This document shows positions 212 through 43,721 of a stretch of 64,000 nt of DNA, piece after piece. Within the stretch, counting starts at the first letter, position 1, and every line of letters begins with the position of its first letter. The DNA is taken from positions 7,450-71,449 of the forward strand of contig JACQSC010000004.1 in NCBI GenBank assembly GCA_016206155.1. Reading direction: 5' to 3'. The stretch comes from Candidatus Uhrbacteria bacterium. Its GTDB lineage: Bacteria; Patescibacteriota; Patescibacteriia; JACQRZ01. The position numbers and the translations under genes were made by a program. The notes below the pieces were generated by a model. It was not told where the DNA came from. It worked only from the letters and a program-made list of their open reading frames with translations, and made no database searches.

Positions 212-634
212 ATGTATCTGTCCTCGATCATAAAAATACGCCTGGAAGAAAAGCTGATCAAGCTCAACAAACTTCGCCCGCATCCAAAATCAGCGGTACA
301 AAAATTGCGGGAAAAGTTTCAGATTGAAATGACCTACAACTCAAATGCCATTGAAGGCAACTCTTTGACGTTACGGGAGACTTTTTTGGTTATTAACGAA
401 GGTATTACAATCAAGGGTAAACCTCTTAAAGATCATTTGGAAGCAAAAGATCATCATGCTGCGCTCGAATATCTATATGACTTGATCGATAAAGATAAAA
501 AACACACTGTTTCTGAAATGCTCATAAAAAATTTGCATCAAATTATTTTACAAGAAACCGATAGAGAGTGGGCGGGGAGATATCGGAATGCCAATGTCAT
601 TATTGGCGGAGCCAAACATACGCCACCAGACTAA
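212..634 (+). pseudogene. Fic/DOC family protein, N-terminal fragment (stops before the HxFx(D/E)GNGR catalytic motif)
   Basis: Translation has the Fic N-terminal helices (SNAIEGNSLTL...), but the ORF stops at 140 aa and no Fic motif follows. Confidence 0.4.
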
Positions 635-980: not shown

Positions 981-1484
981 TCAAAGCTTCGGAACATGAT
1001 AGAGCTTTTTGGTGCGGTCTACAAAAAGAATACCGTCGAGGTGGTCAATCTCGTGCTGAAGGCAGCGTGCAAGCAGTCCTGACGCTTGAACCGTTTTCTT
1101 CGCACCTTCGCGGTCACTGTACGCAACTGTGACGGACTTCCACCGGCGCACCACGCCAAAGATTTCTGGCACAGAAAGACAGCCCTCCTCTCCATCTTCC
1201 TTGAAGAGGGAGTGACGGACGATAACGGGGTTGATAATAACAAGCGCATCATTTTTTTTCTCTCGATACTCCTCAAAACGCTCAGGGTATGGACAGAGCA
1301 CTGAAATGCGATATGAGCGATTGACCTGCGGCGCGGCAAGGCCAATCCCGTCTTTCTCATACATCGTCACAATCATGTCGTCGATAAGTTTTTGAACCGC
1401 GGGATCATCCGCCCTGGCAGCCTCTGCCGTGCGTGTGCGTAGAACGGAGTTTTTGTCGCGAAGGGTAACAATAGGGAGCATCAT
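981..1484 (-). CDS. def: peptide deformylase
   Basis: PDF motifs GIGLAAPQV, EGCLSVP and QHEIDHLDG in the translation. Confidence 0.9.
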   Translation of the reverse strand: MMLPIVTLRDKNSVLRTRTAEAARADDPAVQKLIDDMIVTMYEKDGIGLAAPQVNRSYRISVLCPYPERFEEYREKKNDALVIINPVIVRHSLFKEDGEEGCLSVPEIFGVVRRWKSVTVAYSDREGAKKTVQASGLLARCLQHEIDHLDGILFVDRTKKLYHVPKL

Positions 1485-1513
1485 ATATGAAAAGTGATAA
1501 CCGGTGATGTATG

Positions 1514-3382
1514 TTACAAGATCACTGGGTCAATGTCAACGAGCCACCCATAGGGAAGCGATCTGAGATAGCTCTGGAGTTCTTCGGGGAGCTCTGCGTT
1601 GAGAATCGTTTTTTGAGGAATTGAGAATACAATCATGGAATCGGTTTTGGAGCGTATGGTTGCGCCGAGTGTGACACAGCGGTCAGCAATGACAATGGAT
1701 GAGATCGGATCTCCTGAAATAAGTGCATGCGGCGATAATGAAACGATATGACGTCCTGGATATGGGGGGAGATCCGACCTTTGAAGACGGAGGCGAAAGA
1801 GGCGGGTTGAAGGAGGCCACTGGTGGGCGGCACGCTCAGTAAGCGCTCCTCGCGCATAGTCATCATAGTTGCCCGAATGAAGCGCCTTCATATACCTCGC
1901 ATCGGGAGAAAAAGTTTGAACAAGAAATTTTGCATTGCATAATTTCGCAAGACGCATAAACTCGAACAACAACTGTACATGCCGCTCCTCTGATCGAAAG
2001 TCAGAAAGGGTCAGAGTCGGATCACCGGAAAGCACGCCAATGCACCCGATAGAACGAAAGGCCTCCGGACATGCGCGCAGGAGATACGACGTGCCGACAA
2101 TAATAGCGTTATGAAGTTCTGGCACGCCAGTACCGCTATGGAGCCGTTTGAGGATGTCTTGCGGATGCTTCTGCTGCGTGAACTCAAGAACGCGGGAGTC
2201 AGGAAACTCCTTCTTGACCAATTCGGCGATTTTTTCCGTTCCCAGTGCAATAAAATGAAAGCGCACCGATTGGCATGCGGGACAGCGCGACGGCAGTATT
2301 TCATCGGCGTTGCACTGGGTGCAGATAAGACGCGATTGAGCGGCGCGCGCAGGCGCATCGCATTGCGCGCATGAGAAGACATGCCCGCAGTCACGGCAGG
2401 TGATCATCCTGCTCGCGCCCGTTCGATTCACAAAAAGAAACGCGCCACGTTTCTGTGCGAGGCTCTCGCGCACTGAATCAATTAATTGTTCGCTGATGTA
2501 CCCGCGTCCCGTTGCGCGAATTTCATCGCGCATATTGATAATGGTCGCAGTACATTCGCATGGTTTCCGTTTTGAAAGAAAAAATTCCTCAAGACGGGGC
2601 GTATCACTTGCATAGACCAATGGGCATCCTGTCCGTGTATGGATGTCAAGCGCAACAGCACGCACGTCAAAGCGTGGATTGAGGTCGTACTGATTGTGTT
2701 CATTTCGCTCGGCAGAATCGACAATCAGCGCACCAAGATTATGGAGAGGGACGCAGGCGCCGGCGCGTGTCGCGATGATACAATGCGGCGTTCTGTCAAA
2801 GAGCGATGACCATCGCGAGAATAGCAAACCTGCGGAAAGGTCGCTATGCATGACTGTCACAGCATCACCAGCCGCAGCGCGCGCATGCGGCTCAAGAAGC
2901 GCGGCCTCGTGAATTGTTGGAACACATATCAGAATGTTCTTTTTTTTCTTGAGCGTTTTTTTTATGAGTGCGCAGTGGTCGCGGTACCGCTCTCCTAAAA
3001 AAGATTCATGAAGCACGGAAGGAAGTGTTCGTTGCTTGCGCAGAACACCTGTTGAGAGATAGGAACGAGGAAAATCCGGAAGCAAAGCCTTGAGGGCCGT
3101 GGCACGCGAGATGCAATAGTGGCGTGCGAACCACTCGAAATGTGCGCGTTGCATATTCCACGCCATATAGCGCAATGGCAACGTGCGTGTGATCGGTTTA
3201 AGCGTCTCTGCGCGCGCTTCATCTACGCTCCAAACAAGACCTGCGATTGTTTTCTTGCGAAATGGTATTGTAACAAACGTCCCCGGAAGGCACGCGTCGC
3301 GCATATCGTCTGGAATCGAGTAGTCAAAAAGAGCGAGATTACGCGGAAGGCGTGTGATTGGAACAATGCGCGCGCTTTTCAT
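1514..3382 (-). CDS. priA: primosomal protein N' (PriA) homolog, helicase motif I apparently missing
   Basis: N-terminal 3' DNA-binding region, Cys4-Cys4 zinc-finger insertion (CRDCG...CAQC...CTQC...CPAC), and PriA-like motif Ia/II region (ILICVPTI...IVDSAERNEH); no GxGKT. Confidence 0.75.
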   Translation of the reverse strand: MKSARIVPITRLPRNLALFDYSIPDDMRDACLPGTFVTIPFRKKTIAGLVWSVDEARAETLKPITRTLPLRYMAWNMQRAHFEWFARHYCISRATALKALLPDFPRSYLSTGVLRKQRTLPSVLHESFLGERYRDHCALIKKTLKKKKNILICVPTIHEAALLEPHARAAAGDAVTVMHSDLSAGLLFSRWSSLFDRTPHCIIATRAGACVPLHNLGALIVDSAERNEHNQYDLNPRFDVRAVALDIHTRTGCPLVYASDTPRLEEFFLSKRKPCECTATIINMRDEIRATGRGYISEQLIDSVRESLAQKRGAFLFVNRTGASRMITCRDCGHVFSCAQCDAPARAAQSRLICTQCNADEILPSRCPACQSVRFHFIALGTEKIAELVKKEFPDSRVLEFTQQKHPQDILKRLHSGTGVPELHNAIIVGTSYLLRACPEAFRSIGCIGVLSGDPTLTLSDFRSEERHVQLLFEFMRLAKLCNAKFLVQTFSPDARYMKALHSGNYDDYARGALTERAAHQWPPSTRLFRLRLQRSDLPPYPGRHIVSLSPHALISGDPISSIVIADRCVTLGATIRSKTDSMIVFSIPQKTILNAELPEELQSYLRSLPYGWLVDIDPVIL

Positions 3383-4170
3383 ACCCGATACTCAAGCACC
3401 GTATAACCGACTCCAAACGGAGCTTCATATGAGAGAAGGTGCGTGTTCCATGAAAGAGAATCAAGGATTCCGCGTAGAACAATGCTGGGCTGCACTGCAC
3501 AGGCGTTCAGCCTCCGAACATCCTCTCTTTTTATCGAAAGCAGCGCGTCGGGAGCTTTTTTTCGCAATGCATCGATAAACATGTAGTCGAAAGGAAGACA
3601 TATTTTTTCATGTTCCTCTTTCTTTCCCTTTTTAACGCAATGCGCGCAGTCACCGGCCGCTAGACAGATGATGCGCTTTGCCGACCTCTGAAGCGTGCTC
3701 GTGAGCGCGCACCCGAAGGCAAATAAAGCGCGTGTATCAGTATCAGGGGGTTGAACAATGACGACCTTTATTGGAAGCCCCTCAAAAAGCGTGAGTAACG
3801 GGATGCCTGCAGTGTATTCCGGATAGTCGTTGCTGATAAGAGCAAGGGAGATATGCGCGTCACGTATATTGCCCTTGATTTCGGTGCCGAGCACCGTATC
3901 ACAGGCGAATGAACCCTTTGTTACGAGATCGCCGAACTTGCTTACATCGACACAATACTGCTGCGCCAGCTGGAGCTCGAAAACGGTTCGCCGGCGTCGC
4001 CCTTGTTCAGGCGTTTTAATTAACACGACGGTATCAACACCAAGATTGGCGCATGACGCTTTGAGCGTGGCCAATCCTTCAAGCGTCTTTACAAGCATGT
4101 CGTGAGCATCTTTTCCAATTGATGGGAGAAGGAGTGGAGAGTGCGGAATGAGGGCAGCAGAGACAATCAT
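3379..4170 (-). CDS. LigB/MEMO1-superfamily (class III extradiol dioxygenase subunit B-like) protein
   Basis: N-terminus MIVSAALIPHSPLL resembles the LigB-family HxP start; length about 260 aa. Confidence 0.45.
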   Translation of the reverse strand: MIVSAALIPHSPLLLPSIGKDAHDMLVKTLEGLATLKASCANLGVDTVVLIKTPEQGRRRRTVFELQLAQQYCVDVSKFGDLVTKGSFACDTVLGTEIKGNIRDAHISLALISNDYPEYTAGIPLLTLFEGLPIKVVIVQPPDTDTRALFAFGCALTSTLQRSAKRIICLAAGDCAHCVKKGKKEEHEKICLPFDYMFIDALRKKAPDALLSIKREDVRRLNACAVQPSIVLRGILDSLSWNTHLLSYEAPFGVGYTVLEYRV

Positions 4171-4177
4171 AATGGCA

Positions 4178-4210
4178 GGGTACAGGGTTTAGGGTACAGG
4201 GTTTAGGGTT
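4178..4210. repeat. heptanucleotide tandem repeat GGGTACA/GGGTTTA (about 4.7 units); opposite strand CCCTAAA encodes the C-terminus and TAA stop of the 4189..5613 gene
   Basis: Direct reading: gggtacagggtttagggtacagggtttagggtt. Confidence 0.85.
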
Positions 4211-5613
4211 CCTGTTTGAGCAATGCCTGTCGTTGGATCTGTATACTCTTGCTCGATAATGCGGCCAATATCGACCGGCGCGCCGAGTGGGTGCAGTGCA
4301 AGCGTTGCGCCAGTCGTTGACATGACTTGATTCCACGAAAAACCCAAAGCGGTAAACGCCTCCTCTGATACGAACTGGCGCTTCTGGCCGTGTGAGATGA
4401 TGTAGACGGTCGGATCGCCATCTGATTTTATAAGCGAGCCGTCGGAAAAAAGCATTGGCGCACCGAGCGGAACCGCATCAAGCGCTCCCTTGCGATCGGG
4501 GCGTATCGGCATGCGCGCAAAGTTTGCCTGGAGGAGTGCGCGTTCAAGCAAGGGGCGCTTGATCCCGCCGGAGAGCGCAAACACTCCGCCGGTACGGACA
4601 TCCTGGACAAGCTCCTCCATTGGTGACTGTTTTTTTGACAGGATTCCTTTTGTTGGAATCTCGTCAAGATCGTGGTCGTTGACCCGAACTATCTCGTCGG
4701 GATTGAATCCGATGCTTCGAAAGACATCTCGCGACGGGATAATATACTTTCCATCATCCGCGATCAAAAACACACCGCCGCTTGGCACCTGCAGAAGAGA
4801 GTATTGCATAAAACGGAGTGGCATTCCTTCGGTATATGTGTCCAGACTCCCGCGGGTAACCGTGACAAGATTTTTTTCAGAAAAGCGAGAGCGAAGCACG
4901 CTCATGGATGTAATTTTTCGTTTTTTTCCATCCTGAATGAGCCAGATATCCGAGGATTCATTTTCTTTTACCAGCATGCCGTCAGGAAATACTTTGCCGA
5001 AATAACTCTGCCAGAGCTTCCAGAAGCTGAAGTTGCCGCGCAGGTGGGGAGTGTAGTTATAGAGTGCGGCGGTCGCGTTGTTGCGGGGAATGAGGGACAC
5101 ACCGTCAACGATCGCTTGAGCGCCGGCGCGATAATTAAACTCGTTCGCGTTCGTAATGTAATACTTGCTGCGCCATGCCGCTTTTTCCACCTGAGTCGCA
5201 AATCCTTTATATGCGGCGATGGCAGGATCGGTCGGAGCGCAGCTGTCACAGCGCGCAAAGCCCGTCGCCCAATCATAGTTGTATGGTGTCGGATGTTGAT
5301 TTTCTATAAGGCTCTGTTCTTTTTGCAGCAAGACAAGAAGCACCTTCGGGTTCAGGCCATTGGTTGTCGCCGATTCCCAGATGACATCAGACGCTCTCTT
5401 GTTCTCGCCGCGGTGTGTCACAACCGTATACGTTGCAAGAGTTGATTGCTTTCGCTCAAGGAATGACTGCACCTCTGCGCGGCTCATATCCTCGTGATGA
5501 AAAAAATCCGCATCGGGAATAATGTCCTCGGGGTTAAACGAAAGACTCCACGCGTTTGGCACAGCACTTGCAAAAACGGTGGCACTAATGAGCAACAAGA
5601 GTATGGTACGCAT
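4189..5613 (-). CDS. secreted protein, possible cell-wall-associated hydrolase (unassigned family)
   Basis: Signal peptide MRTILLLLISATVFASA; C-terminal triple repeat of about 45 aa; C-terminus NPVP* supplied by the heptamer repeat. Confidence 0.55.
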   Translation of the reverse strand: MRTILLLLISATVFASAVPNAWSLSFNPEDIIPDADFFHHEDMSRAEVQSFLERKQSTLATYTVVTHRGENKRASDVIWESATTNGLNPKVLLVLLQKEQSLIENQHPTPYNYDWATGFARCDSCAPTDPAIAAYKGFATQVEKAAWRSKYYITNANEFNYRAGAQAIVDGVSLIPRNNATAALYNYTPHLRGNFSFWKLWQSYFGKVFPDGMLVKENESSDIWLIQDGKKRKITSMSVLRSRFSEKNLVTVTRGSLDTYTEGMPLRFMQYSLLQVPSGGVFLIADDGKYIIPSRDVFRSIGFNPDEIVRVNDHDLDEIPTKGILSKKQSPMEELVQDVRTGGVFALSGGIKRPLLERALLQANFARMPIRPDRKGALDAVPLGAPMLFSDGSLIKSDGDPTVYIISHGQKRQFVSEEAFTALGFSWNQVMSTTGATLALHPLGAPVDIGRIIEQEYTDPTTGIAQTGTLNPVP

Positions 5614-5623
5614 TCAATAATGG

Positions 5624-8275
5624 TTATGTCGCAGCGGTCGCGGCGGCAAGTTCTTTTGCGTTTGCAATGATGATCGTTTCATCCTTGGCATCGATTTGGA
5701 CGGTGTCGCCCTCCTTTACGCTGCCATCGACGATCTTGAGCGCAAGTTCATTGAGGATACAGTTTTGGACCGCGCGCTTAAGCGGGCGGGCGCCATAGAG
5801 CGGATCGTAGCCGCGTTTTGCCAGAAAATTGACAAGCGCTTCGGTAAATTCAACGGTGATATCCTGCTTTGTCAGGCGTTCGCGCACCTCTTCAAGCTGA
5901 AGCGCAACGATATGCTGTATCTGTTTTTCCGAGAGGGGATGAAAGATGATGATTTCTGTAATGCGATTGAGAAACTCCGGCTTGAAGTGTTTATGGAGCA
6001 CATCCATGATCTTGTCTCGCATTTCATCTTCATCGATGATCTTTGATGCGCGCTCCCCGGAAGAAAAGCCCAATGACGCCTGGCGTAAAAGATCTCCGCC
6101 AAGATTCGACGTCATGATGATAATGGTGTTCTTAAAGTTCACTTTTCGTCCTTTCGCGTCGGTAATATGTCCGTCGTCAAGAATTTGCAGAAGCACGTTA
6201 AATATCTCGGGATGCGCTTTTTCAATTTCATCAAAGAGGATTACGCTGTAGGGCTTGCGGCGGATTTTTTCCGTAAGCTGTCCGCCTTCATCATAGCCGA
6301 CATAGCCAGGGGGGGAACCGATCAGGCGAGAGACGGAATGCTTCTCGCCAAACTCGCTCATGTCGACGCGAATCAATGCTTGTTCGTCGTTGAACATAAA
6401 CTCCGCAAGACTCTTTGCCAGTTTTGTTTTTCCAACGCCGGTCGGACCGATGAAGAGGAATGAGCCGATGGGCTGCTGCTCTTCGGAAAGTCCTGCGCGC
6501 GATCGGCGCAATGCGTTGGCAACCGCCAGGATTGCTTCCTGTTGTCCGACAACTCGCTGTGAAAGAATGTCCTCTGCAGTTTTGAGCTTTTCAGCCTCGC
6601 TTTGAAGAATTTTCATAGCCGGAATGCCTGTCCATCGCGCAATGACCGCAGCGATCTCTTCCTCGGTAACTTCTTCTTTAAGGAAGCGGTGCTTTCGCTG
6701 AAGCGCGGTGAGGCGCTGCATCGTCTTTTTTAAGTCCTTCTCCATCTGGGGAATGATGACGTGGCGGATCTCCGCGACGCGTTGAATATCGACGCGCCTC
6801 TCGGCAATATCTTCTTCTTGTTTGAGTTTATCTATTTTTTTTCTGATGTCGCGGATTTCGGTAATCAACTCTTTTTCGTTTTTCCAGTCGATCTCGAGCT
6901 TCTGCGCCTGCTCTTTGGTCTCGGCAAGTTCTTTTTCAAGCTCCTTCAGGCGCGCCTTTGCATGTTTATCCGATTCTTTGGAAAGCGCCTGTTTTTCAAT
7001 CTCCAGCTTCAGGATCGTTCGTTTGAGCCGGTCGAGTTCGACGGGTTGGCTGTCGATTTGAAGCCGGATTGCCGATGTCGCTTCATCAATGCAATCAATT
7101 GCCTTATCCGGCAGAAAGCGGTCAGCAATATATCGATGAGAGAGGTGAGTGGCAGCAACAATAGCCGCATCGGTAATACGGACTCCGTGATGAATTTCGT
7201 ATTTTTCCTTGATACCGCGCAGAATGGCGACGGTATCGTCAACCGTCGGCTCGACAACGAGTACGGGCTGGAAGCGGCGCTCAAACGCGGCATCCCGTTC
7301 AATATATTTCTGATATTCCTTCAGCGTCGTCGCGCCGATGGTCCGCAGCTCACCGCGCGCCAGGGCGGGTTTAAGCATATTTGATGCGTCAATTGCGCCT
7401 TCAGCGCCTCCCGCTCCCACTACGGTATGCAGCTCATCGACAAACAGGATCACCTGGCCGTTCTTGCTTGTGATTTCTTTGAGCACCGCTTTAAGGCGAT
7501 CCTCAAAGTCTCCACGGAATTTTGTTCCCGCAACAAGCGACCCCATGTCAAGCGCAAGAATCTCTTTCTCCTTCAGCGATTCGGGGACGTCGCCGGAAAC
7601 AATGCGCTGGGCAAGCCCCTCAACAATGGCGGTTTTTCCAACACCCGCCTCACCGATAAGAACGGGATTATTTTTCGTCCTGCGCGAAAGCACCTGAATG
7701 ACGCGGCGGATTTCCTCATCGCGTCCGATCACGGGATCAAGTTTTTCGTGGCGCGCTTGATCCGTAAGATTCACTGCATATTTACTGAGCGCCTGGTATT
7801 TGCTCTCCGGATCAGGGTCGGTGACTTTTTGCGTTCCGCGTAACTGGGCAAGAATACGCAGGACAGCATCGTAGTCGATTTTATAAAGTTTAAGAATTTT
7901 TTCCGCCGGAGAGGGGGTTTGAATAAGCGCGAGAAAAAGGTGCTCGGTACTGATATACTCATCGCGAATATTTTTCGCCTCTTTCTCTGCTTGATTGAGA
8001 ATTTGCGCGATCTCCTTTGAGATATAGATCTGGGCGGTGCCCCCTCCTGAGACGTAGGGGATAAAGCGAAGCTCTTCCTCGAGCTCCTGTTCAAGGGTTG
8101 TAACAGGTATCTCGAGTTTTTGCAGAAGACCCGAAACAATGCCTTCTTGTTGGCGGACGAGAGAGAGAAGAAGATGGAGCGAGGTGATTTCTTGATGGTT
8201 GCGTTCGGCGGTTAGCTTGTGCGCATGTTGAAGCGCTTCCTGCGCCCGGGTCGTAAAGTTATTATTTTCCGGCAT
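5624..8275 (-). CDS. clpB: ATP-dependent chaperone ClpB
   Basis: Two AAA+ modules ([16 protein letters not shown]), long coiled-coil middle domain, Clp N-domain. Confidence 0.95.
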
Positions 8276-10828: not shown

Positions 10829-11086
10829 ATGCAGATTCTTCGTACCCGTTCTTTTGAGCGCGAGTTTGTGAAGTTGCCGAACGATGTTCGGGAGCGATTT
10901 GTGCAAAAGCTCGATTTTTTTCTTTCAGACCCATTTCATCCTTCTCTCCGCTCCAAGAAAATGCAAGGAAGAATAGATATTTGGGAAGTGAGTATAACCA
11001 TGAACTATCGCTTTACATTTGATAGAGATGGTGGCGTGATCCATCTCCGTCGAATTGGGACGCACGATATCCTTAACAACCCCTAA
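10829..11086 (+). CDS. type II toxin RelE/ParE family
   Basis: 85-aa ORF with a RelE/ParE-like pattern (FVKLPNDVRERF...GRIDIWEV...RFTF...IHL). Confidence 0.75.
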   Translation: MQILRTRSFEREFVKLPNDVRERFVQKLDFFLSDPFHPSLRSKKMQGRIDIWEVSITMNYRFTFDRDGGVIHLRRIGTHDILNNP

Positions 11087-11087
11087 T

Positions 11088-12332
11088 GTGGATCTTTTTG
11101 ATTCCCACTTACAGTCCAAAAACCATGCGCCGCTTGCCGATAGGATGCGGCCTACTACGATCGATGAGATTGTGGGGCAGGATCATATCTTGGGGCAAGG
11201 AAAAGTATTGCGTACGCTGATTGAAAAAGATCAACTTCGCTCGATTATCTTCTGGGGTCAGCCCGGGACCGGAAAAACGACTATTGCATCAGTCATTGCG
11301 CGGTCGACCGGTGCGGATTTTGTCGCACTCTCTGCCGTGAACACCGGTGTAAAAGAGGCGCGCGTGGTTATTGAGAAAGCAAAGGATTCATTAAAATTTC
11401 ACCACAAGCGGACCATTCTTTTTATCGACGAGATTCATCGCTTTAGCAAATCACAGCAAGACGCGTTTTTGCCCGCTGTAGAGGACGGCACAATTATTTT
11501 GATAGGCGCGACAACGGAGAATCCTTCGTTTGAGGTGAACTCTGCCTTGCTTTCGCGTTCGCGGGTCTTTGTGCTTAATGCGCTCAACGACGAAGCGCTT
11601 TCTCATATTCTTGATCGGGGACTGAATATGGTGTCTGAAATGGAGTCAGGCGCAGATCCCATTTCACTTGACGAGACAGCGCGCCGCGCACTTATTGATG
11701 CATCTAATGGCGATGCACGCACACTTCTTAACATGCTTGAATATGCTTTACTCTTGATTGGTGATAAAAAAGTAATTGGCTTGCCTGTGGTGCAAGAGGC
11801 AATTCAACAGAGCATGCTGAGATACGATAAAAATGGAGAAGAACATTACAATGTCATATCCGCGTTTATCAAAAGCATGCGCAACTCGGATGCCAATGCG
11901 GCGCTGTATTGGATGGCGCGTATGATTATGGCGGGGGAGGATCCGCTTTTCATTGCGCGGCGCATGGTCGTGTTCGCATCAGAAGATGTGGGACTTGCCG
12001 ATCCCAAGGCAATCATGGTCGCCACTTCTGTTTTTCAGGCAGTGCACGCAATCGGTATGCCGGAGGCGCGTATTCCGCTTGCGCACTGCGCGGTGTATTT
12101 GTCAAAGGCGCCACGAAATAACTCCGCATACATGGGTATTGAAGCGGCGCTCTCTGACGCGAAGGAGCACGGCAATCTTCCGGTCCCGCTCCATTTGCGC
12201 AACGCCCCGACAAAGCTGATGAAAGACTTGGACTATGGCAAAGGGTATCAGTATGCGCACGACTTCAAGGAAAAAATAGCAGATATGCAGTGCATGCCCG
12301 ACGAGTTGAAGGACAGGCGATACCTTTTTTGA
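11088..12332 (+). CDS. rarA: replication-associated recombination protein A (MgsA/RarA)
   Basis: AAA+ Walker A GQPGTGKTT, sensor motifs, MgsA C-terminal domain; GTG at 11088 follows the relE stop (the track ORF starts at TTG 11055). Confidence 0.9.
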   Translation: MDLFDSHLQSKNHAPLADRMRPTTIDEIVGQDHILGQGKVLRTLIEKDQLRSIIFWGQPGTGKTTIASVIARSTGADFVALSAVNTGVKEARVVIEKAKDSLKFHHKRTILFIDEIHRFSKSQQDAFLPAVEDGTIILIGATTENPSFEVNSALLSRSRVFVLNALNDEALSHILDRGLNMVSEMESGADPISLDETARRALIDASNGDARTLLNMLEYALLLIGDKKVIGLPVVQEAIQQSMLRYDKNGEEHYNVISAFIKSMRNSDANAALYWMARMIMAGEDPLFIARRMVVFASEDVGLADPKAIMVATSVFQAVHAIGMPEARIPLAHCAVYLSKAPRNNSAYMGIEAALSDAKEHGNLPVPLHLRNAPTKLMKDLDYGKGYQYAHDFKEKIADMQCMPDELKDRRYLF

Positions 12333-32785: not shown

Positions 32786-35350
32786 TCATTTCTTTTTTCT
32801 GCGGTCAAGATAAAATTGTGCGCCAAGGCCGGCGGCGATGATGAGTGTAGCAATGAACGTAACGATAAAGTACTTTAAAAGATTGGCTCGAGGGTCTTTC
32901 CGCTCTGGCAAAGTGAGTACGCGCGACTCTGATACTTTCTCGCCAAGAATCGCGCCTTCCGGTGTCGCGATGGCGATGTCGTTTTCGTCGCGGGGGAGAA
33001 TGCGGTATCCGGCGCTTGTTTCACTCACAATACCGGTAACGGCCATGACTGATTCTTTTGGCATGCTCTCCTTCGCGATACCGGTGTTCTTTGTTACATA
33101 CACCCGAACGCGCGCGTCACCCTCTTCAAGATACACATTGGGCCAGCGCGTATCGGCAACAGTGCCAGTTACACGCACAAGCTCTCCTTCAAGCGCTTCC
33201 CCTATTTCACCCAACGAGGTCTCAAGCGCGAGCGGATCCTCTTCGCGCCCGATAATGGCAATATTATTCGCCTGCTCAATGCGTATCGCTGTTTCTTTTC
33301 CGTTTTTGCGCACGGCGCCTGATATCGCGATTTTATCGCCGCGTGCAAGCGGCGGAAATTCTTTCCTCAGATTCCATATTTGAATGCCGGAACCGGCAAT
33401 GTAAAAATAATTTTCACTCACGATACCGGGTGGCATGGATACAACACCTTCAACAACAACACGCGTTCCTGACTTGAGGGAACGGACGCGACCAAGCGAT
33501 GTGCTGATTGATTTGGTCTGGATGGGGGGTGTGGTCACGGATGAGGGTGGCTGAACTACGGAGTGACGAGCGGGCGATGAGGAATTGGCGTGAGCAGAGA
33601 ATGACGGTGGCGTAACCGTTGCCGCAGAAATACGATCCTCAATAACGATATGATGAAACTGCGCCATGCTCACGTGTCCGTCGCTCACGGTGAGCAGGAT
33701 AGGAAACGCATCTTCATCGTCAAAACGATGATGAACAACCGGACCTGCGCCAGTTGTTCCATCGCCAAAATTCCAGTGAAAAATAAGCGGATCGCCATCA
33801 CGATCATACGTGTCTGATGCGTCGAAAGTCAGCGGATCACCGGGAGACGCACTATACGGTCCAGCAATCACAATGGTTGGCGGCGTGTTGTCCCGCTTAA
33901 TCACATTAGTATCATTCGGCGTGCTTGTCTGTGTCCATTCAAACATGCCCGTCGCGTTCCGCGCGTAACTCAAATCAAGCGGCGCGTTCTCGGTATATCG
34001 CACCTCATCTGTTGCGCGAAGAGCATTGGGGGCAAAGAGCCGTACGCGCTCACCGCCGGTATTGCGGAGCGGAAGGCCGGTCATACTTCGCGGGTAGGCG
34101 CGATACTCCTGTGGTTTCAATGGCTTTCCATCTGAAAATACATACCGTATATCGTTCAGAAGAGTCAGTTCCCATCCGGTCAGATTTACCGGCACATCGT
34201 TGGGATTATACAGTTCGATAAATTCGTCCTCCGGCGAACGTGAAGACGGATTGGGAACGAGTTCGGAGATAACGAGTGGCGGCGCTTCCGGCACGCGCGC
34301 CGTTTCCCTCTCGACGATGGTGTTTGCCGCGCCCTTTGTAGGCGCCCCGGTCATACGAAAATCATCACGGTTGTTTAAGGTGTTTCCGATACGCGCAAGC
34401 GAGAAAGGATCAACTGCCGCAACTGCGTTGTCGCGCAGATCCCCGTCATCCCAATTTCCGTAGGTGAGCCGGTCAATCATCACGCGCTCTGCGCTATACA
34501 ATATAATCATATCGCCGGCATTGTCGAGAAATCCGGATCCAACGGAAAAAACCGCGTACTGTTTTCCGCTTTTTACATCAAGTTTCCCCGACAACGTGAC
34601 CACACCGCCGCTTCCATCTTCAAGCGTCCATCCCACGAAATCGATTATTTGCCGTGTCGTGTTGTACAGTTCCACCCACTCTTCCTCGCGATCAATAGGA
34701 TCGGAAACGATCTCGTTGATGAGTACGGCTCCGCGCCCGGGACGCCACACCGCGGGAGGCGCCTGTTCATTTTTTTTCTCCGATTCCTTCGCTTGTTGTT
34801 CCGATTCTTTTTTTTGTTCTTGTCCGCCAGTGGTGGCATTGCTGTTCTGCGCGCCGATGGTATGGCTGTCAGGATGGCTCTGCCAATTTGCCGCCGTATA
34901 ATCGGCGGTGTTCACGTTTTTTCGTTCGAGCGATGTTTTTTTTGCTTCAATGTACGTAAACAATTCAACGATGTCGCCACTTGCGTTTTTAAGCCCAACC
35001 TCCTCTCCTTTTTCCGCAAGAGTACCCCATGAACTGTCAATGAGCGTGCCGGTTAAGCTCGGATGTTTTACTTCAACGTTATCCGCCTTATTCGCAATCA
35101 CCGCGTACTCTCTCGGCTCGATAATAAAATCGCCGCGATACGCGGTGAGCTTGTGATTGACACCAGCCTCATAAAACTTCCATCCCGTGATGTCAACTGG
35201 TTCGTTTCCTCTGTTGTAAATTTCAATCCACTCATAATCACTCGATTCGTGCGCGGCAATCTCATTGATAACAATATCCTGGTCGACGGCAAAAAGCGGC
35301 GACGGTGCGAAGAATATAAAAAATATCACGATGAAAAATCGAGAGGCCAT
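32786..35350 (-). CDS. large surface protein with lamin-tail (LTD) domains, a PKD domain and a C-terminal TM anchor
   Basis: LTD-like repeats (INEI...EWIELYN...DITGW), PKD core FHWNFGDGTTG, N-terminal signal peptide (start set at MASRFFIVIFF), C-terminal TM plus RRKKK. Confidence 0.75.
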   Translation of the reverse strand: MASRFFIVIFFIFFAPSPLFAVDQDIVINEIAAHESSDYEWIEIYNRGNEPVDITGWKFYEAGVNHKLTAYRGDFIIEPREYAVIANKADNVEVKHPSLTGTLIDSSWGTLAEKGEEVGLKNASGDIVELFTYIEAKKTSLERKNVNTADYTAANWQSHPDSHTIGAQNSNATTGGQEQKKESEQQAKESEKKNEQAPPAVWRPGRGAVLINEIVSDPIDREEEWVELYNTTRQIIDFVGWTLEDGSGGVVTLSGKLDVKSGKQYAVFSVGSGFLDNAGDMIILYSAERVMIDRLTYGNWDDGDLRDNAVAAVDPFSLARIGNTLNNRDDFRMTGAPTKGAANTIVERETARVPEAPPLVISELVPNPSSRSPEDEFIELYNPNDVPVNLTGWELTLLNDIRYVFSDGKPLKPQEYRAYPRSMTGLPLRNTGGERVRLFAPNALRATDEVRYTENAPLDLSYARNATGMFEWTQTSTPNDTNVIKRDNTPPTIVIAGPYSASPGDPLTFDASDTYDRDGDPLIFHWNFGDGTTGAGPVVHHRFDDEDAFPILLTVSDGHVSMAQFHHIVIEDRISAATVTPPSFSAHANSSSPARHSVVQPPSSVTTPPIQTKSISTSLGRVRSLKSGTRVVVEGVVSMPPGIVSENYFYIAGSGIQIWNLRKEFPPLARGDKIAISGAVRKNGKETAIRIEQANNIAIIGREEDPLALETSLGEIGEALEGELVRVTGTVADTRWPNVYLEEGDARVRVYVTKNTGIAKESMPKESVMAVTGIVSETSAGYRILPRDENDIAIATPEGAILGEKVSESRVLTLPERKDPRANLLKYFIVTFIATLIIAAGLGAQFYLDRRKKK

Positions 35351-35435
35351 ATCCACCAAGTATACCAAATTTTTAGACGGTAGTGCGCCTCCACTCTTGA
35401 CCAGTGAATGCCTTGCGTGATTTAATAAAAGCACT

Positions 35436-38976: not shown

Positions 38977-39838
38977 AAAAACAACCATTCCTCAGTGGCT
39001 CACCGACATCGGCGAATATCTCAATAAACCGCTTCCGCCGCTTCTCGATATTGATCTGTCCCTTCTTTCGAAGCGGGCACCCGCCCTTGTGATTCCTGAC
39101 GGCATCGCAATCTCGGTTATTATTCCGGCGTGGAATGAAGAGGCATACATTGCGCGAACGCTCGATGCGCTCCACCGCCAAACATTTCCGCGCGACCGGT
39201 ATGAGATCGTAGTTGTCGATAATGTCTGCACCGACCGCACCGCCGATCTTGCGCGCGCATATGGCGCTGACAAAGTTGTCTCTGAGCCATGCAAGGGAAC
39301 AAACTTCGCACGCCAGCGCGGTATCGAAGAAAGCACCGCCGACATCATTGCATTTCTGGACGCCGACTGCGTACCGCCTCCTGAATGGCTTGAGAAAATA
39401 TATACAAAGCTGACCGAAAAAAATCATCGCTGTGCGGCGATTGCAGGATCGTATATCTTCCATGTCAATCCGACTGAATCCCTCTTCCTTGCGCAAGAAA
39501 TCTATCGCTGGATTGTTATGCCCACGATGTCCACGCTCTTTGGTCGACTCTTGGGGCGGGGCGGGGTGATTATTGGCGGCAACTTCGCATCGTTCCGCGA
39601 AAACTTCAATAAAATAAACGGCCTTGACACCTCGTTCACTTTTTTTGGCGACGACGCAAGCATTGCACGCAAATTTGGAGAGATCGGCTTTGTTGAGTTT
39701 GATCCCCTCCTCTACGTCCTGACCTCGACGAGACGCTTTGAGCGTGATGGTCTCCTGAAAACAAACTGGGAGTACGCGCGCAATTATTTTAAAGTCATGT
39801 TCGATGATCATTCACGACCAAAAAGTAAGGCGTCTTGA
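38963..39838 (+). CDS. family 2 glycosyltransferase
   Basis: ISVIIPAWNEE...VVVDNVCTDRT...FLDADC motifs; start set at MPENKK. Confidence 0.8.
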   Translation: MPENKKTTIPQWLTDIGEYLNKPLPPLLDIDLSLLSKRAPALVIPDGIAISVIIPAWNEEAYIARTLDALHRQTFPRDRYEIVVVDNVCTDRTADLARAYGADKVVSEPCKGTNFARQRGIEESTADIIAFLDADCVPPPEWLEKIYTKLTEKNHRCAAIAGSYIFHVNPTESLFLAQEIYRWIVMPTMSTLFGRLLGRGGVIIGGNFASFRENFNKINGLDTSFTFFGDDASIARKFGEIGFVEFDPLLYVLTSTRRFERDGLLKTNWEYARNYFKVMFDDHSRPKSKAS

Positions 39839-40661
39839 GAAGCTTGCAAACTCCATTCGCCGAGACATCATAGCCATGCTCGTAAAGGCTGGATCAGGGC
39901 ACTCGGCCGGCCCCCTGGATATGGCGGATGTCTTTACAGCGCTGTATTTTCATATTCTCCATCACCGACCAAAACAACCTCAGTTGGAGGGACGTGACCG
40001 TCTCGTTCTTTCATGTGGCCACATCTGTCCGGTTCGCTATGCCGCAATGGCACGCGCAGGATATTTCCCGCTCAAAACACTTTCGACCCTCCGCAAGCTC
40101 GGATCACCTCTGCAGGGACACCCAGAGCTTCATAAACTGCGTGCAGTAGAAAATACTAGCGGCCCCCTTGCGCAGGGAACATCGGTGGCGGTCGGCATGG
40201 CGCTTGCCGGAAAAATGGATAACAAAAAATGGCGCGTCTATGGTGTGTTGTCAGACGGCGAACATCAGGAGGGGCAAACATGGGAGGCCGTCATGTTTGC
40301 GGGGAACAAGGGACTCAACAACCTTACCTTCCTTGTCGATCGTAATAATATCCAGATTGACGGCATGACCGAGGAGGTGATGCCCCTAGAGCCGTTTGCC
40401 GACAAGTACCGTGCGTTCAATTGGCATGTCATCGAAATTGACGGCCATAACATTCGAGAGATTGTTGATGCATGTGAACAGGCAAAGCGCATTTACGAAA
40501 AACCAACGGTCATTATCTGTCATACCATTCCCGGCCGCGGCGTTGAATTTATGGAAAAAAAATACGAATGGCACGGCATCCCTCCCAATGAGGAACAAGC
40601 ACAAGAAGCGTTGCGCGATCTCCGCACGTTACGCGGAAAAATTATTTCGGAGCACGAATAA
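39804..40661 (+). CDS. tktA: transketolase, N-terminal (TPP-binding) subunit
   Basis: SGHSAGPL...GHP...GPLAQG..GMA...DGE TPP-binding motifs; 285 aa means a split transketolase. Confidence 0.9.
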   Translation: MIIHDQKVRRLEKLANSIRRDIIAMLVKAGSGHSAGPLDMADVFTALYFHILHHRPKQPQLEGRDRLVLSCGHICPVRYAAMARAGYFPLKTLSTLRKLGSPLQGHPELHKLRAVENTSGPLAQGTSVAVGMALAGKMDNKKWRVYGVLSDGEHQEGQTWEAVMFAGNKGLNNLTFLVDRNNIQIDGMTEEVMPLEPFADKYRAFNWHVIEIDGHNIREIVDACEQAKRIYEKPTVIICHTIPGRGVEFMEKKYEWHGIPPNEEQAQEALRDLRTLRGKIISEHE

Positions 40662-40663
40662 GC

Positions 40664-41014
40664 TTGAACGCTACCATGAAAACGTCAATCCATGCGCCGA
40701 TTGTCATAAATCCGAACGATATCCCGTGGAAAAAAATAGCACCGGGCGTGACAATGAAAGATCTAGCATTCGACAAGCCAAAAAATCAAAGACTCACACT
40801 TTTTAAATTTAATAAGGGAGCGCGACTCAAAACCCACAAGCACTCCGCCCTTGAATGGATGTATGTCCTTGATGGCATCTACCAGGATGAATTTTGCACT
40901 ATACCAAAGGGCAGATTGAAAATCAACAAAAAGGGTTCAATCCACACATCACAACCAAAACGAGGGTGCACCCTCCTTGTGGTATGGAGTGGGAAACATA
41001 TTACTGTGCGATAG
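40664..41014 (+). CDS. cupin domain protein
   Basis: Cupin-like beta-barrel length and His-containing motif (HKHSALEWMYVLDG). Confidence 0.45.
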   Translation: MNATMKTSIHAPIVINPNDIPWKKIAPGVTMKDLAFDKPKNQRLTLFKFNKGARLKTHKHSALEWMYVLDGIYQDEFCTIPKGRLKINKKGSIHTSQPKRGCTLLVVWSGKHITVR

Positions 41015-41025
41015 CGTTAGTGTAT

Positions 41026-42693
41026 ATGAAATTAAAAAAATCAGAGCAGAAAAAAAATGGGGCCGAGCTCCTCGTCGACTGCCTCAAGACGCAGAACGTC
41101 AAATATATCTTTGGCATTCCTGGCGCTGCTGTCATGCCCATCATGGAATCATTACGTGTCAATGAACAGCAGGGCGGCCCCAAGTTTATTATCACGCGCC
41201 ATGAACAAAATGCGGCCTTTATGGCGCAAGCCTGGGGCCGCATCACAGAAACACCGGGAGTCTGTCTGGCAACGGCCGGGCCAGGCGCGACAAATCTTGT
41301 TACGGGTGTTGCAACTGCAACGGCCGATCGCGATCCAATGGTTGCAATTACCGGCGAGACACCCCGAGTAGAACATTTTCAAAAAACTCATCAAACGATC
41401 CGCACCGCTACATTATTTCGCCCAATAGCGAAGTGGAGCGAAGAAATTCAAGACGCCGCGGCAATCCCCGAAGCGGTCTCGCTGGCATTTAGAGCTGCAA
41501 AGCTTCCTCATGAGGGGGCCGTCAATATGACGTTTCCCTTGGACGTGCAGACCTCCCGTGCAAAAGGGATACCCCTTACATCTGAGTCGCCATTGTTCGG
41601 AAAAGCTTCAGCAGAAGAATTACAAACAGCGGCCGAGATTCTTGCTCGCGCGAAACATCCTTGTCTCCTTCTTGGATGCGGTGCAACACGCGCCAAAACC
41701 ACCGGAGCGCTCCGTAGATTTCTTACCAATCATGCGGTGCCGGTCGTTGGTACCTTCGAAGCAGCTGGTGCAATCTCGCGGGATCTTGTCCATCTTTTTG
41801 TTGGACGCGTGGGCCTCAAAGTTGAAGAACCGGGAGATATTGCATTACGCAATGCCGATTGCATCATCACCGTTGGCTTTGATCCGATTGAGTATCACCC
41901 CTCCTTCTGGCACAGCAAGGCAGTACCGATTGTTCATATTGACGAACTTCCCTCAGAGCCCCATACGCTCTACCAACCTGCCGCAGAACTCATGGGTGAT
42001 ACCGCAAAGAACCTTGATTCGCTCTCGGAGCGCGTTACGCGATCGTACCCATTTCACCCTGCGGCAAAAAAAGCTCAGGCCACTATGTTCAAACACATGC
42101 ATCAAGCGGCACCAGGAACAACGGTACACCCGCTAACCTTTATCAATATCCTCCGTGAAAGCATCGACGATACCGTGACGGTATGCTCTGATGTTGGCGC
42201 GCATCAAATCTGGCTTGCAAAACATTTTCTCTCGTACGAACCACGTCATCTTCTTTTTAGCATGGGGTTCCAAACAATGGGCGTGAGCTTACCGTGGGCA
42301 ATTGCGGCAAGTCTGGCTCGCCCCAAAACGCACATCGTCTCACTAAGCGGTGATGGATCGTTTATGATGAGTGCGATGGAGCTGGAAACAGCGGTCCGCC
42401 TTAAACTCCAAATCACGCATATCATTTGGCGCGACGGAAGCTATAACCTCGTAAAAATCCAGCAACAGGAGACGTATAAAAAGACGTATGGTATCTCATT
42501 TGGCAATCCTGATTTTGTTAAGCTTGCTCAAAGCTTCGGCGCACAAGGATTTCGAATAACAAAGCCATCGCAAATACAACGAACACTCAAAAAAGCACTT
42601 TCAATAAAAACACCAGCCGTCATTGATGTTGCGATTGATTATCGGAAAAACCTTTCCCTTCTCCGGCCTTCTGAACTAGCCTCACTTTCATAA
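41026..42693 (+). CDS. thiamine-pyrophosphate enzyme of the acetolactate synthase family
   Basis: N-terminal PYR domain (GIPGAAV...), central domain, GDGSF TPP-binding motif; start set at MKLKKSEQ. Confidence 0.8.
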   Translation: MKLKKSEQKKNGAELLVDCLKTQNVKYIFGIPGAAVMPIMESLRVNEQQGGPKFIITRHEQNAAFMAQAWGRITETPGVCLATAGPGATNLVTGVATATADRDPMVAITGETPRVEHFQKTHQTIRTATLFRPIAKWSEEIQDAAAIPEAVSLAFRAAKLPHEGAVNMTFPLDVQTSRAKGIPLTSESPLFGKASAEELQTAAEILARAKHPCLLLGCGATRAKTTGALRRFLTNHAVPVVGTFEAAGAISRDLVHLFVGRVGLKVEEPGDIALRNADCIITVGFDPIEYHPSFWHSKAVPIVHIDELPSEPHTLYQPAAELMGDTAKNLDSLSERVTRSYPFHPAAKKAQATMFKHMHQAAPGTTVHPLTFINILRESIDDTVTVCSDVGAHQIWLAKHFLSYEPRHLLFSMGFQTMGVSLPWAIAASLARPKTHIVSLSGDGSFMMSAMELETAVRLKLQITHIIWRDGSYNLVKIQQQETYKKTYGISFGNPDFVKLAQSFGAQGFRITKPSQIQRTLKKALSIKTPAVIDVAIDYRKNLSLLRPSELASLS

Positions 42694-42737: not shown

Positions 42738-43721
42738 ATGCCCTCTCATTCCACACACCTCAACCCCCACTTGTTTTCTTCAGATGTTGAACAGATTCCG
42801 ACGCGGAATGGCTATGGCGATGGGTTACTTATGCTCGGCGAATCAAATCCGGATGTTGTCGTGTTAACCGGAGACCTTGCAGAATCAACGCGTGTTCTTG
42901 AATTTGGGAAAAAATACCCCGAACGATTCGTTGAATGCGGTGTTGCGGAACAAAATATGGCGGGCATCGCTGCGGGGCTTGCGCTTGCCGGTAAGATTCC
43001 TTTTATTTCAAGCTACGCTGTGTTTTCTCCCGGAAGGAACTGGGATCAGATTCGAGTCAGTACGTGCTTGAATAACGCGAATGTAAAAATCGTCGGTGCG
43101 CATGCGGGCATTTCCGTCGGTCCTGATGGCGCGACCCACCAAGCGCTTGAAGATATTGCCATCATGCGCGTACTCCCTCACATGGTCGTTGTTGTACCAT
43201 GCGATTATCAAGAAACAATGAAAGCAACGTTTGAAGCAGCGGCATGTATTGGACCCTTTTATTTCCGATTTGCTCGAGAGAAAACACCGTGCATCACAAC
43301 GTTAAAAACACCGTTCAAAGTGGGGCGCGCGGAAATCTTTAGAAAGGGAAAAAACGTCAGTATCATTGCGTGCGGTCCACTTGTGTACCAATCTCTTGTC
43401 GCGGCAGAGGAACTTGCCAAGAGTGGCATCGACTGCGAGGTCATCAACAACCACACAATCAAACCACTTGACGAGAAAACGCTACTCGCATCGGTGCGAA
43501 AAACAAAAGCGGTTGTCACCGTTGAAGAACATCAAATCATGGCCGGTGCGGGAAGTGCGGTATGTGAGCTTCTTTGTAAAAAATATCCCGTGCCAGTTGA
43601 AATGGTCGGCATGAACGATTCCTATGGCGAAAGCGGAAAGCCATCCGAACTTCTTGAAAAATACGGTATGTCAGTCAAAGCAATCAAAACCGCTGTTAAA
43701 AAAGTACTGAGAAGAGCATAG
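42738..43721 (+). CDS. tktB: transketolase, C-terminal (pyrimidine-binding plus C-terminal domain) subunit
   Basis: Tkt PYR-domain motifs (ESNPDVVVLTGDL, GVAEQNMAGIAAG) and C-terminal domain. Confidence 0.9.
   Translation: MPSHSTHLNPHLFSSDVEQIPTRNGYGDGLLMLGESNPDVVVLTGDLAESTRVLEFGKKYPERFVECGVAEQNMAGIAAGLALAGKIPFISSYAVFSPGRNWDQIRVSTCLNNANVKIVGAHAGISVGPDGATHQALEDIAIMRVLPHMVVVVPCDYQETMKATFEAAACIGPFYFRFAREKTPCITTLKTPFKVGRAEIFRKGKNVSIIACGPLVYQSLVAAEELAKSGIDCEVINNHTIKPLDEKTLLASVRKTKAVVTVEEHQIMAGAGSAVCELLCKKYPVPVEMVGMNDSYGESGKPSELLEKYGMSVKAIKTAVKKVLRRA

Follow-up and report, generated by a model that had tools for sequence, protein, structure and literature searches.

PriA is the central replication-restart factor of bacteria, and published accounts hold its helicase motifs to be conserved in all bacteria but Deinococcus-Thermus (PMC4504706, PMC5778457). 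The PriA of Deinococcus radiodurans has degenerate motifs I and II (lysine replaced by arginine), neither hydrolyses ATP nor acts as a helicase, and binds single-stranded DNA, forks and the replicative helicase DnaB (Lopper, Boone & Morrow 2015, PMC4504706). The Escherichia coli PriA variant K230R (priA300) is ATPase-dead, yet primosomes are still assembled and its in vivo behaviour is close to wild type; it needs the PriA-PriB pathway, the PriA-PriC route and Mu transposition being impaired (PMC5778457). Here we describe a priA-like gene in a 64-kb stretch of contig JACQSC010000004.1 from Candidatus Uhrbacteria bacterium (the whole stretch is called the window below), the 622-residue product of which is very probably a genuine PriA ortholog that has become an ATPase-dead pseudohelicase. 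The explanation that we consider probable as a whole is that this protein serves as an ATP-independent scaffold for fork recognition and DnaB loading.

Identity of the gene and decay of its ATP site

The gene and its recognizable parts are distributed as follows.

1514-3382, minus strand: priA-like gene, ATG start, 622 residues, very probable PriA pseudohelicase (NCBI MBI4252946.1)
3068-3382, minus strand: 3' DNA-binding domain (3'BD), residues 1-105, PF17764
2996-3067, minus strand: short linker, residues 106-129, in place of the winged-helix domain and strand beta-1
2984-3007, minus strand: remnant of helicase motif I, ESFLGERY, residues 126-133, register taken from HMMER and MAFFT alignments
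2573-2995, minus strand: RecA-like lobe 1, residues 130-270, predicted local distance difference test score (pLDDT) mostly >90, aligns to PriA lobe 1, ATP motifs gone
2708-2719, minus strand: degenerate motif II, D222-S-A-E225, in place of DEEH, codons read directly
2663-2707, minus strand: aromatic-rich-loop region, RNEHNQYDLNPRFDV, residues 226-240
2258-2407, minus strand: cysteine-rich region, residues 326-375, with CxxC pairs C329/332, C338/341, C354/357 and C367/370
1940-1963, minus strand: degenerate motif VI, E474-FMRLAK-L481, in place of QxxGRxGR
1517-1906, minus strand: putative C-terminal domain, residues 493-622, terminating in the conserved W.(V/I)D.DP

An initial annotation of the window had called the product a PriA homolog, which is borne out by domain, profile, sequence and fold comparisons. 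The 3'BD family PF17764 is the sole match in a Pfam scan of the 622-residue protein (E 1.1e-13). The NCBIfam model TIGR00595, against which an alignment had been recommended, matches with E 4.9e-65; its 220.1 bits are short of the curated 230.35-bit cutoff, and the first aligned model position is 17, directly behind the P-loop. Searched with phmmer against Protein Data Bank (PDB) sequences, the protein matches the Klebsiella pneumoniae and E. coli PriA structures at E ~3e-34, its residues 137-534 aligning with PriA residues 250-657. A profile built from the window protein and ten motif-less relatives, five close orthologs and five more distant homologs (alignment A3), matches K. pneumoniae PriA at E 5.7e-97 over the 3'BD and over residues 240-745 to the C-terminus, and also matches the isolated E. 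coli 3'BD structure 2d7e (E 8e-10). An AlphaFold2 model computed from a 62-sequence alignment (mean pLDDT 88.8, predicted template modelling score 0.88) is matched in Foldseek by PriA chains in all nine top PDB positions (E 7e-39 to 9e-31), the best being 6dcr, E. coli PriA with its winged-helix domain deleted; Mfd, at E 3e-10, is the nearest other family. The features predicted by the model include two RecA-like lobes of the superfamily 2 (SF2) helicase type in the overall arrangement specific to PriA. At the C-terminal domain, the A3 profile reaches the final residues of K. pneumoniae PriA, the terminal D.DP is kept and the columns R517, P523, P524, D616 and P619 are conserved; PF18074 is unmatched, and residues 540-557 have pLDDT <50.

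In SF2 helicases, motifs Q, I, II and VI serve NTP binding and hydrolysis, and motifs Ia-c, IV and V contact nucleic acid. In the window protein, the motif I consensus GVTGSGKT is replaced, in a gapless register given by both HMMER and MAFFT, by E126-SFLGER-Y133, so that the invariant glycine has become Glu131, the Walker lysine Arg132 and the threonine Tyr133. Motif II (consensus DEEH) reads D222-S-A-E225, motif III (SATP) reads S259-D-T-P262, motif V (GTQ) reads G430-T-S432, and motif VI (QxxGRxGR) reads E474-FMRLAK-L481, with leucine in place of both arginine fingers. Judged by these alignments, all motifs for binding and hydrolysing ATP (I, II and VI) are destroyed, as are the coupling motifs (III and part of V). 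The suggestion of an ATPase-dead PriA, made initially from a missing Walker A sequence and an altered motif II, is thereby supported and proves to have been understated, since motifs III, V and VI are degenerate as well. Clear descent from PriA together with non-consensus Walker A and Walker B sequences is also what defined D. radiodurans PriA as a pseudohelicase, and by sequence the window protein is one in the same sense.

The initial annotation had offered two ways out of its own conclusion, a misjudged alignment and a sequencing frameshift. The former is excluded: HMMER and profile alignments reproduce the register first proposed, with 'kknilicvptiheaall' against 'grqalvmvpeigltpq' at motif Ia, 'galivdsaernehnqydlnprfd' against 'gvividEEHdssykqqe-gwryh' across motif II and the aromatic-rich loop, and ESFLGERY at the Walker A site. 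The latter belongs to a wider possibility, that a frameshift or misassembly conceals an intact P-loop and that the true protein is a normal helicase, which could appeal to the origin of the sequence in a metagenome-assembled genome (MAG) and to two A8 homopolymer runs at ~2938-2963, near the expected P-loop. These runs, however, lie downstream of the P-loop position, within a well-aligned helix. When all six frames of the window are scanned, 1514-3382 yields no [AG]xxxxGK[ST], and the two alternative frames of 2600-3400 are stop-rich and contain no GK[ST], GxGK or GxxGK. The frame check proposed at first, for a displaced GxGKT around 2650-2800, likewise finds none, but that range is the motif II region, the P-loop being expected at ~2984-3007. 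Motifs II, III and VI are lost too, making four separate sites in one uninterrupted 622-codon open reading frame (ORF). The NCBI record MBI4252946.1 is 100% identical to the window protein ('hypothetical protein HY623_02060 [Candidatus Uhrbacteria bacterium]', on a 288-kb contig), and the Logan assembly of SRR12113422, which may share the same source reads, is identical to window positions 1029-5494 (4466 bp). Comparison with related PriA proteins, also recommended at the outset, yields five diverged orthologs from other samples (47-62% identity), all with full-length ORFs and identical motif losses. Frame scans, multi-motif loss, the identical Logan copy and the diverged orthologs together refute an artefact, to which we attach practically no probability.

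The loss of motif I goes beyond substitution. About 24 residues separate the 3'BD from lobe 1, leaving no winged-helix domain, a domain that lies between the 3'BD and the helicase core in E. coli PriA and is not present in all PriA proteins. Relative to the sister alleles P0004-6, the window protein and its relatives P0002 and P0003 carry a 23-residue deletion that removes the strand before the P-loop: the spacing from P102 to P155 is 53 residues, compared with 76 in P0004-6 and at least 73 in PriA proteins that bear Walker A. The linker is modelled as coil without a strand (pLDDT 64-78), and strands beta-2 to beta-7 of lobe 1 are modelled with high confidence.

These structures bear on whether Arg132 at the Walker lysine, or the second, weaker nucleotide site proposed for E. 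coli PriA (PMC5778457), could sustain a cryptic ATPase. The recurrence of a Glu-Arg pair at this position in many motif-less lineages could be taken to favour such an activity. K230R alone, however, abolishes the ATPase of E. coli PriA, and the window protein has additionally lost the P-loop glycines, the threonine, the catalytic glutamate of DEEH, both motif VI arginines and the strand that bears the P-loop; across the family, ATP-site positions are unconserved. A cryptic ATPase is therefore highly improbable.

The elements predicted to contact DNA and zinc show a different pattern. The residues D20, Y21, G34 and K62 of the window protein match Asp17, Tyr18, Gly37 and Lys61 of E. coli PriA, which hold the leading-strand 3' end (PMC5778457); alignments of relatives show no variation at Y21 or G34 and conservation of at least 90% at K62. 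The cysteine-rich zinc-binding insertion noticed initially is present as four CxxC pairs, CxxC(n)CxxC(n)CxxC(n)CxxC, predicted to form two zinc sites, and its eight cysteines are conserved: none varies in alignments A1 and A3, and the sole variable one in A2 is C341, at 90% conservation or more. Within lobe 1, nothing is better conserved in the motif-less family than the aromatic-rich loop (KQ..NPRY), which acts in DNA binding (PMC5778457). When 117 proteins lacking Walker A are compared with 46 intact ones, the ATP-site motifs show zero conservation in the 117, which keep motif Ib (GTR), the aromatic-rich loop, motif IV (LF.NR.G) and the eight cysteines, and also a DFR..E segment, QT..P, R....PPF and the terminal D.DP. 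Set against the roles of the SF2 motifs, this pattern of conservation indicates a PriA in which the DNA-binding surface is kept and the engine removed.

Patescibacteria genomes are strongly reduced, and this counts in favour of a decaying pseudogene, a functionless ORF left as PriA is lost through genome reduction, as do the absence of every catalytic motif, an evolutionary rate several-fold that of the neighbouring genes and the NCBI label 'hypothetical protein'. Against decay stand full-length open frames of 600-660 residues in more than 100 clusters at 50% identity; the invariance of the eight cysteines, the 3'BD pocket residues and ~20 further columns at only 22-25% identity; a confidently predicted fold; and a conserved position with apparent translational coupling to the upstream gene. 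Moreover, the proportion of nonsynonymous differences between the window gene and two orthologs (pN 0.25-0.35) is far below that of synonymous differences (pS 0.67-0.73); because synonymous sites are saturated, dN/dS is unreliable in priA and only the inequality pN << pS is used. Within the clade, 196 of the 622 positions are invariant, concentrated in the 3'BD, the aromatic-rich loop, motif IV and the cysteine-rich region. A pseudogene is thus very unlikely: the gene is real and under purifying selection, neither an error nor a relic.

Distribution and descent of the motif-less family

A word-indexed search finds Walker A missing from six members of the window clade and from seven more distant proteins, and intact in ~70 others. 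An exhaustive search of 1.84 billion representatives returns 12,935 matches at E <= 1e-3. When the best 150 of these matches are taken, each representing one cluster at 50% identity, Walker A is missing from 113, including every one of the top 50, and the combined loss of motifs I, II and VI is seen in 100.

A scan of species-representative genomes with a profile of the motif-less proteins recovers 71 loci of Patescibacteria type, each only 20-29% identical, so the close relatives of the window protein are not among the species representatives. Most PriA homologs at these loci are motif-less, in dozens of Patescibacteria MAGs, in a sample biased by the search pattern (an aromatic-rich-loop variant), such that the motif-less fraction does not estimate prevalence. 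The genome labels comprise Kuenen-, Falkow-, Uhr-, Kerfeld-, Moran-, Parcu- and Paceibacteria, several labels of third-party-annotation MAGs being implausible. The forms of decay are diverse. A Moranbacteria-type subset retains GPxGSGKT and DEEQ, with motif VI present or absent. In another group (L050, L052, L055, L036 and L068) the P-loop is replaced by a conserved HNLQ(S/A)ERHxLY, DDEH or a variant of it is kept, and a sequence beginning NK replaces motif VI. The Glu-Arg pair at the Gly-Lys position of the P-loop recurs in several otherwise unrelated motif-less lineages, including that of the window (GERY).

In a neighbour-joining tree, one bipartition separates 117 proteins, all without Walker A, from a group of 52 that includes every one of the 46 proteins with Walker A; the tree is built from p-distances and carries no support values, the bipartition is used unrooted, and attraction of the long branches of fast-evolving sequences is possible. 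Midpoint rooting of the tree was rejected as uninformative owing to unequal rates. The bipartition is compatible with one main ancient loss and a few independent ones. We take loss of the ATPase to be an old trait that extends through whole lineages over much of Patescibacteria and did not befall the window genome alone.

The protein fragment P0003 and a relative, P0085, are also annotated 'hypothetical protein'. Given such labels and a TIGR00595 score under the cutoff, PriA is probably under-annotated in many Patescibacteria genomes. A search of the literature found no paper tying PriA to Patescibacteria or to the Candidate Phyla Radiation, and the motif-less Patescibacteria PriA family is apparently large and undescribed. 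The window gene offers an entry point to this family-wide loss of the PriA helicase, and the family supplies small, naturally simplified proteins for structural study of the ATP-independent steps of restart.

Genomic context and proposed function

In the window, priA lies in a tight co-directional cluster, clpB-p474-ligB-like-priA-def, whose other members are the following.

981-1484, minus strand: peptide deformylase gene def, 29 bp downstream of priA
3379-4170, minus strand: LigB/Memo-like gene, 263 residues, PF02900 at E 2e-19, upstream of priA, a conserved neighbour in motif-less lineages; no match in NCBIfam
4189-5613, minus strand: p474, conserved protein of 474 residues, no family match
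5624-8275, co-directional with the preceding genes: clpB

The arrangement priA-def(-fmt) is classical. The longer cluster clpB-p474-ligB-like-priA-def(-fmt) is retained in the window, at the loci of two orthologs (L001 and L002), at L004, which carries P0063, an Uhrbacteria protein of just 23-26% identity, at L006, which carries P0017, and at many MAG loci. Intact compact PriA genes of Patescibacteria adjoin def or sit within ~5 kb of it (P0008), the LigB-like/p474 pair being absent. The conserved position beside def indicates that the window gene is the orthologous priA and not a stray paralog.

The surroundings of priA differ from the gene itself in their divergence. The L002 contig, from the Logan assembly of SRR22388342, shares 78-91% nucleotide identity with the window over clpB, p474 and the ligB-like gene and 71-76% over def; over window positions 1524-3350 (L002 positions 4225-6189) identity falls to 46-65%, the low stretch coinciding with priA from one gene border to the other. 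Amino acid identities are 96% for clpB, 84% for p474, 84% for the ligB-like product, 78% for def and 51% for priA, and synonymous divergence is raised in priA (pS 0.73 vs ~0.50). In L001, which is more distant overall, priA is closer to that of the window (62%). The pattern suggests that one priA allele has replaced another between Uhrbacteria lineages, unless the contig is a chimera.

Having no ATP site, the window protein would neither bind nor hydrolyse ATP, and hence would neither translocate nor unwind DNA. It would recognize abandoned forks and D-loops through the 3'BD pocket, the aromatic-rich loop, the other motifs that contact nucleic acid and the surfaces of the lobes, and would then recruit DnaB, directly or through a local loader, without remodelling the DNA. 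Forks that need unwinding of the lagging strand would depend on another helicase or go without restart. By analogy with the described ATPase-dead PriA proteins, such a restart-scaffold role seems likely.

Several points weigh against this account. The winged-helix domain, which in E. coli PriA assists the binding of forks without a 3' end, is missing. ATPase-dead PriA of E. coli needs PriB, which is not expected in the window lineage. The window protein fails even at E = 1 to match the Pfam models for the PriA zinc ribbon and C-terminal domain (PF18074), and its structural model is uncertain at residues 112-129 and 540-557. The gene evolves much faster than its neighbours (dN 0.30-0.47 vs 0.02-0.31), indicating weaker constraint. 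No gene for DnaB, SSB or a loader lies inside the 64-kb window, and a second, intact PriA may be encoded outside it.

An alternative is that the protein, descended from PriA, has taken up a role other than restart, for example a DNA-structure-binding or regulatory one, possibly together with its coupled LigB/Memo-like neighbour, restart being left to another factor or to a second PriA elsewhere in the genome. The priA start codon overlaps the stop codon of the LigB-like gene by 4 bp (ATGA), and the LigB-like/p474 pair lies upstream at 21 of 32 loci without Walker A and at none of 16 with it (Fisher p = 6e-6). The association was rejected as functional evidence, however, because the loci are phylogenetically non-independent: it is confounded by phylogeny, a single lineage would fit it, and the pair is possibly just a lineage marker. 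Fast evolution, the signs of allele replacement and a view of the genome confined to 64 kb also leave room for a new function. On the other side, the gene occupies the canonical priA-def slot, as do intact PriA genes of related lineages; the parts conserved are those that E. coli PriA uses in fork recognition; and the 71 loci, found with a narrow search pattern, come from 71 different assemblies, none with two copies. In the window, no other ORF for a PriA-like or SF2 helicase occurs among otherwise typical Patescibacteria housekeeping content. A change to a non-restart role is accordingly an unlikely alternative to the restart scaffold, if the least improbable of those considered.

A more far-reaching form of the scaffold explanation, which we advance tentatively, is that the PriA ATPase was lost early in much of Patescibacteria (Uhr-, Kuenen-, Falkow- and Kerfeldbacteria and parts of Moran- and Parcubacteria, at least 100 clusters at 50% identity), where the protein would persist as the sole PriA of ultra-small cells, an ATP-independent minimal scaffold without a winged-helix domain that loads DnaB directly. 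In this event, the LigB/Memo-like neighbour might be a new restart partner. If early loss is the true course, it would overturn the claim that PriA motifs are conserved everywhere except in Deinococcus and would provide a natural minimal system with which to define the required job of PriA. If the motif-less proteins are the sole PriA proteins of their genomes, the indispensable function of PriA is recognition of structure and recruitment of the helicase, not unwinding; restart in these organisms is possible just at forks that can be used without remodelling, or relies on a borrowed helicase; and annotation pipelines systematically miss PriA in these genomes.

Other genes of the window were noted in passing. 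A RarA/MgsA homolog is encoded at 11055-12332 on the plus strand (MgsA_C, E 2e-63), 7.7 kb from priA and on the opposite strand, and no linkage is implied; in Bacillus subtilis, RarA is reported as a modulator of replication restart (PMC6101539). Transketolase is split into N-terminal and C-terminal genes (39804-40661 and 42738-43721, plus strand), which flank a gene for a 599-residue thiamine-pyrophosphate enzyme of acetolactate-synthase type (40894-42693, plus strand). Two very large probable surface proteins are encoded on the minus strand, one of 882 residues with three lamin-tail domains and a PKD domain (32786-35434) and one of 1401 residues with DUF5018 and a TSP3 repeat (59768-63973). 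A 140-residue ORF at 212-634 (plus strand; ..NSNAIEGNSLTLRETF..) has no match in Pfam or NCBIfam; we take it to resemble the N-terminal half of a Fic-family protein and to end short of the catalytic motif, and it may be a truncated gene.

Comparison with known PriA proteins

Canonical PriA, as represented by the E. coli and K. pneumoniae proteins (4NL4, 6DCR, 6DGD, 8FAK; TIGR00595), shares with the window protein a homologous 3'BD, both lobes, the cysteine-rich insertion with its two predicted zinc sites and, less certainly, the C-terminal domain, and also the 3'-end pocket residues, the aromatic-rich loop and a gene that adjoins def. Unlike the canonical enzyme, the window protein has no Walker A, DEEH, SATP or QxxGRxGR motif, has 622 residues instead of ~730 with a 24-residue linker replacing the winged-helix domain, and scores under the TIGR00595 cutoff. 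Neither PriB nor DnaT would be expected as a partner of the window protein.

Nearer in build are the intact compact PriA proteins of Patescibacteria (P0008, P0016, P0021 and P0035; L026-L028 of Moranbacteria), which have the same short architecture of ~650-690 residues without a winged-helix domain and have def nearby. These differ in keeping GxxGSGKT, DEE[HQ] and mostly QxxGRxGR, in being only 22-26% identical to the window protein and in having no LigB-like/p474 pair.

The E. coli PriA variants K230R, K230A and K230D, dead as ATPases and as helicases, provide a mechanistic precedent, in that the core job of PriA is done without ATP; they were engineered by changing one residue in an enzyme that is intact elsewhere, whereas the loss in the window family is natural, ancient and spread over several motifs. 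The closest natural counterpart is D. radiodurans PriA, which likewise has degenerate motifs I and II and arginine at the Walker lysine, and for which the same role is proposed, fork binding and DnaB recruitment without ATP hydrolysis. The decay in the window protein is far more radical, with a P-loop remnant that keeps none of the motif's glycines, deletion of strand beta-1 and loss of motifs III and VI; a loss of this kind has so far been demonstrated by experiment in Deinococcus only, whereas the window family is known from sequences and a structural model. Actinobacterial PriA proteins, which may also lack helicase motifs (a UniProt caution on Mycobacterium tuberculosis PriA), are not used in this comparison.

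In light of these precedents, the initial view of an ATPase-dead PriA as a notable change to replication restart stands as regards the motif loss itself and needs tempering as regards its novelty, since D. radiodurans PriA and E. coli K230R preceded it and the trait is family-wide. The Patescibacteria loss is presumably independent of that in Deinococcus, as taxonomy and the intact PriA proteins of related Patescibacteria suggest; common descent of the two losses is unlikely because the source of the window is Candidatus Uhrbacteria. It would be the second natural loss of the PriA helicase beside that of Deinococcus-Thermus, much larger and more extreme. The window PriA is thus a separate lineage of a known kind, the PriA pseudohelicase, with more radical decay and a shorter architecture.

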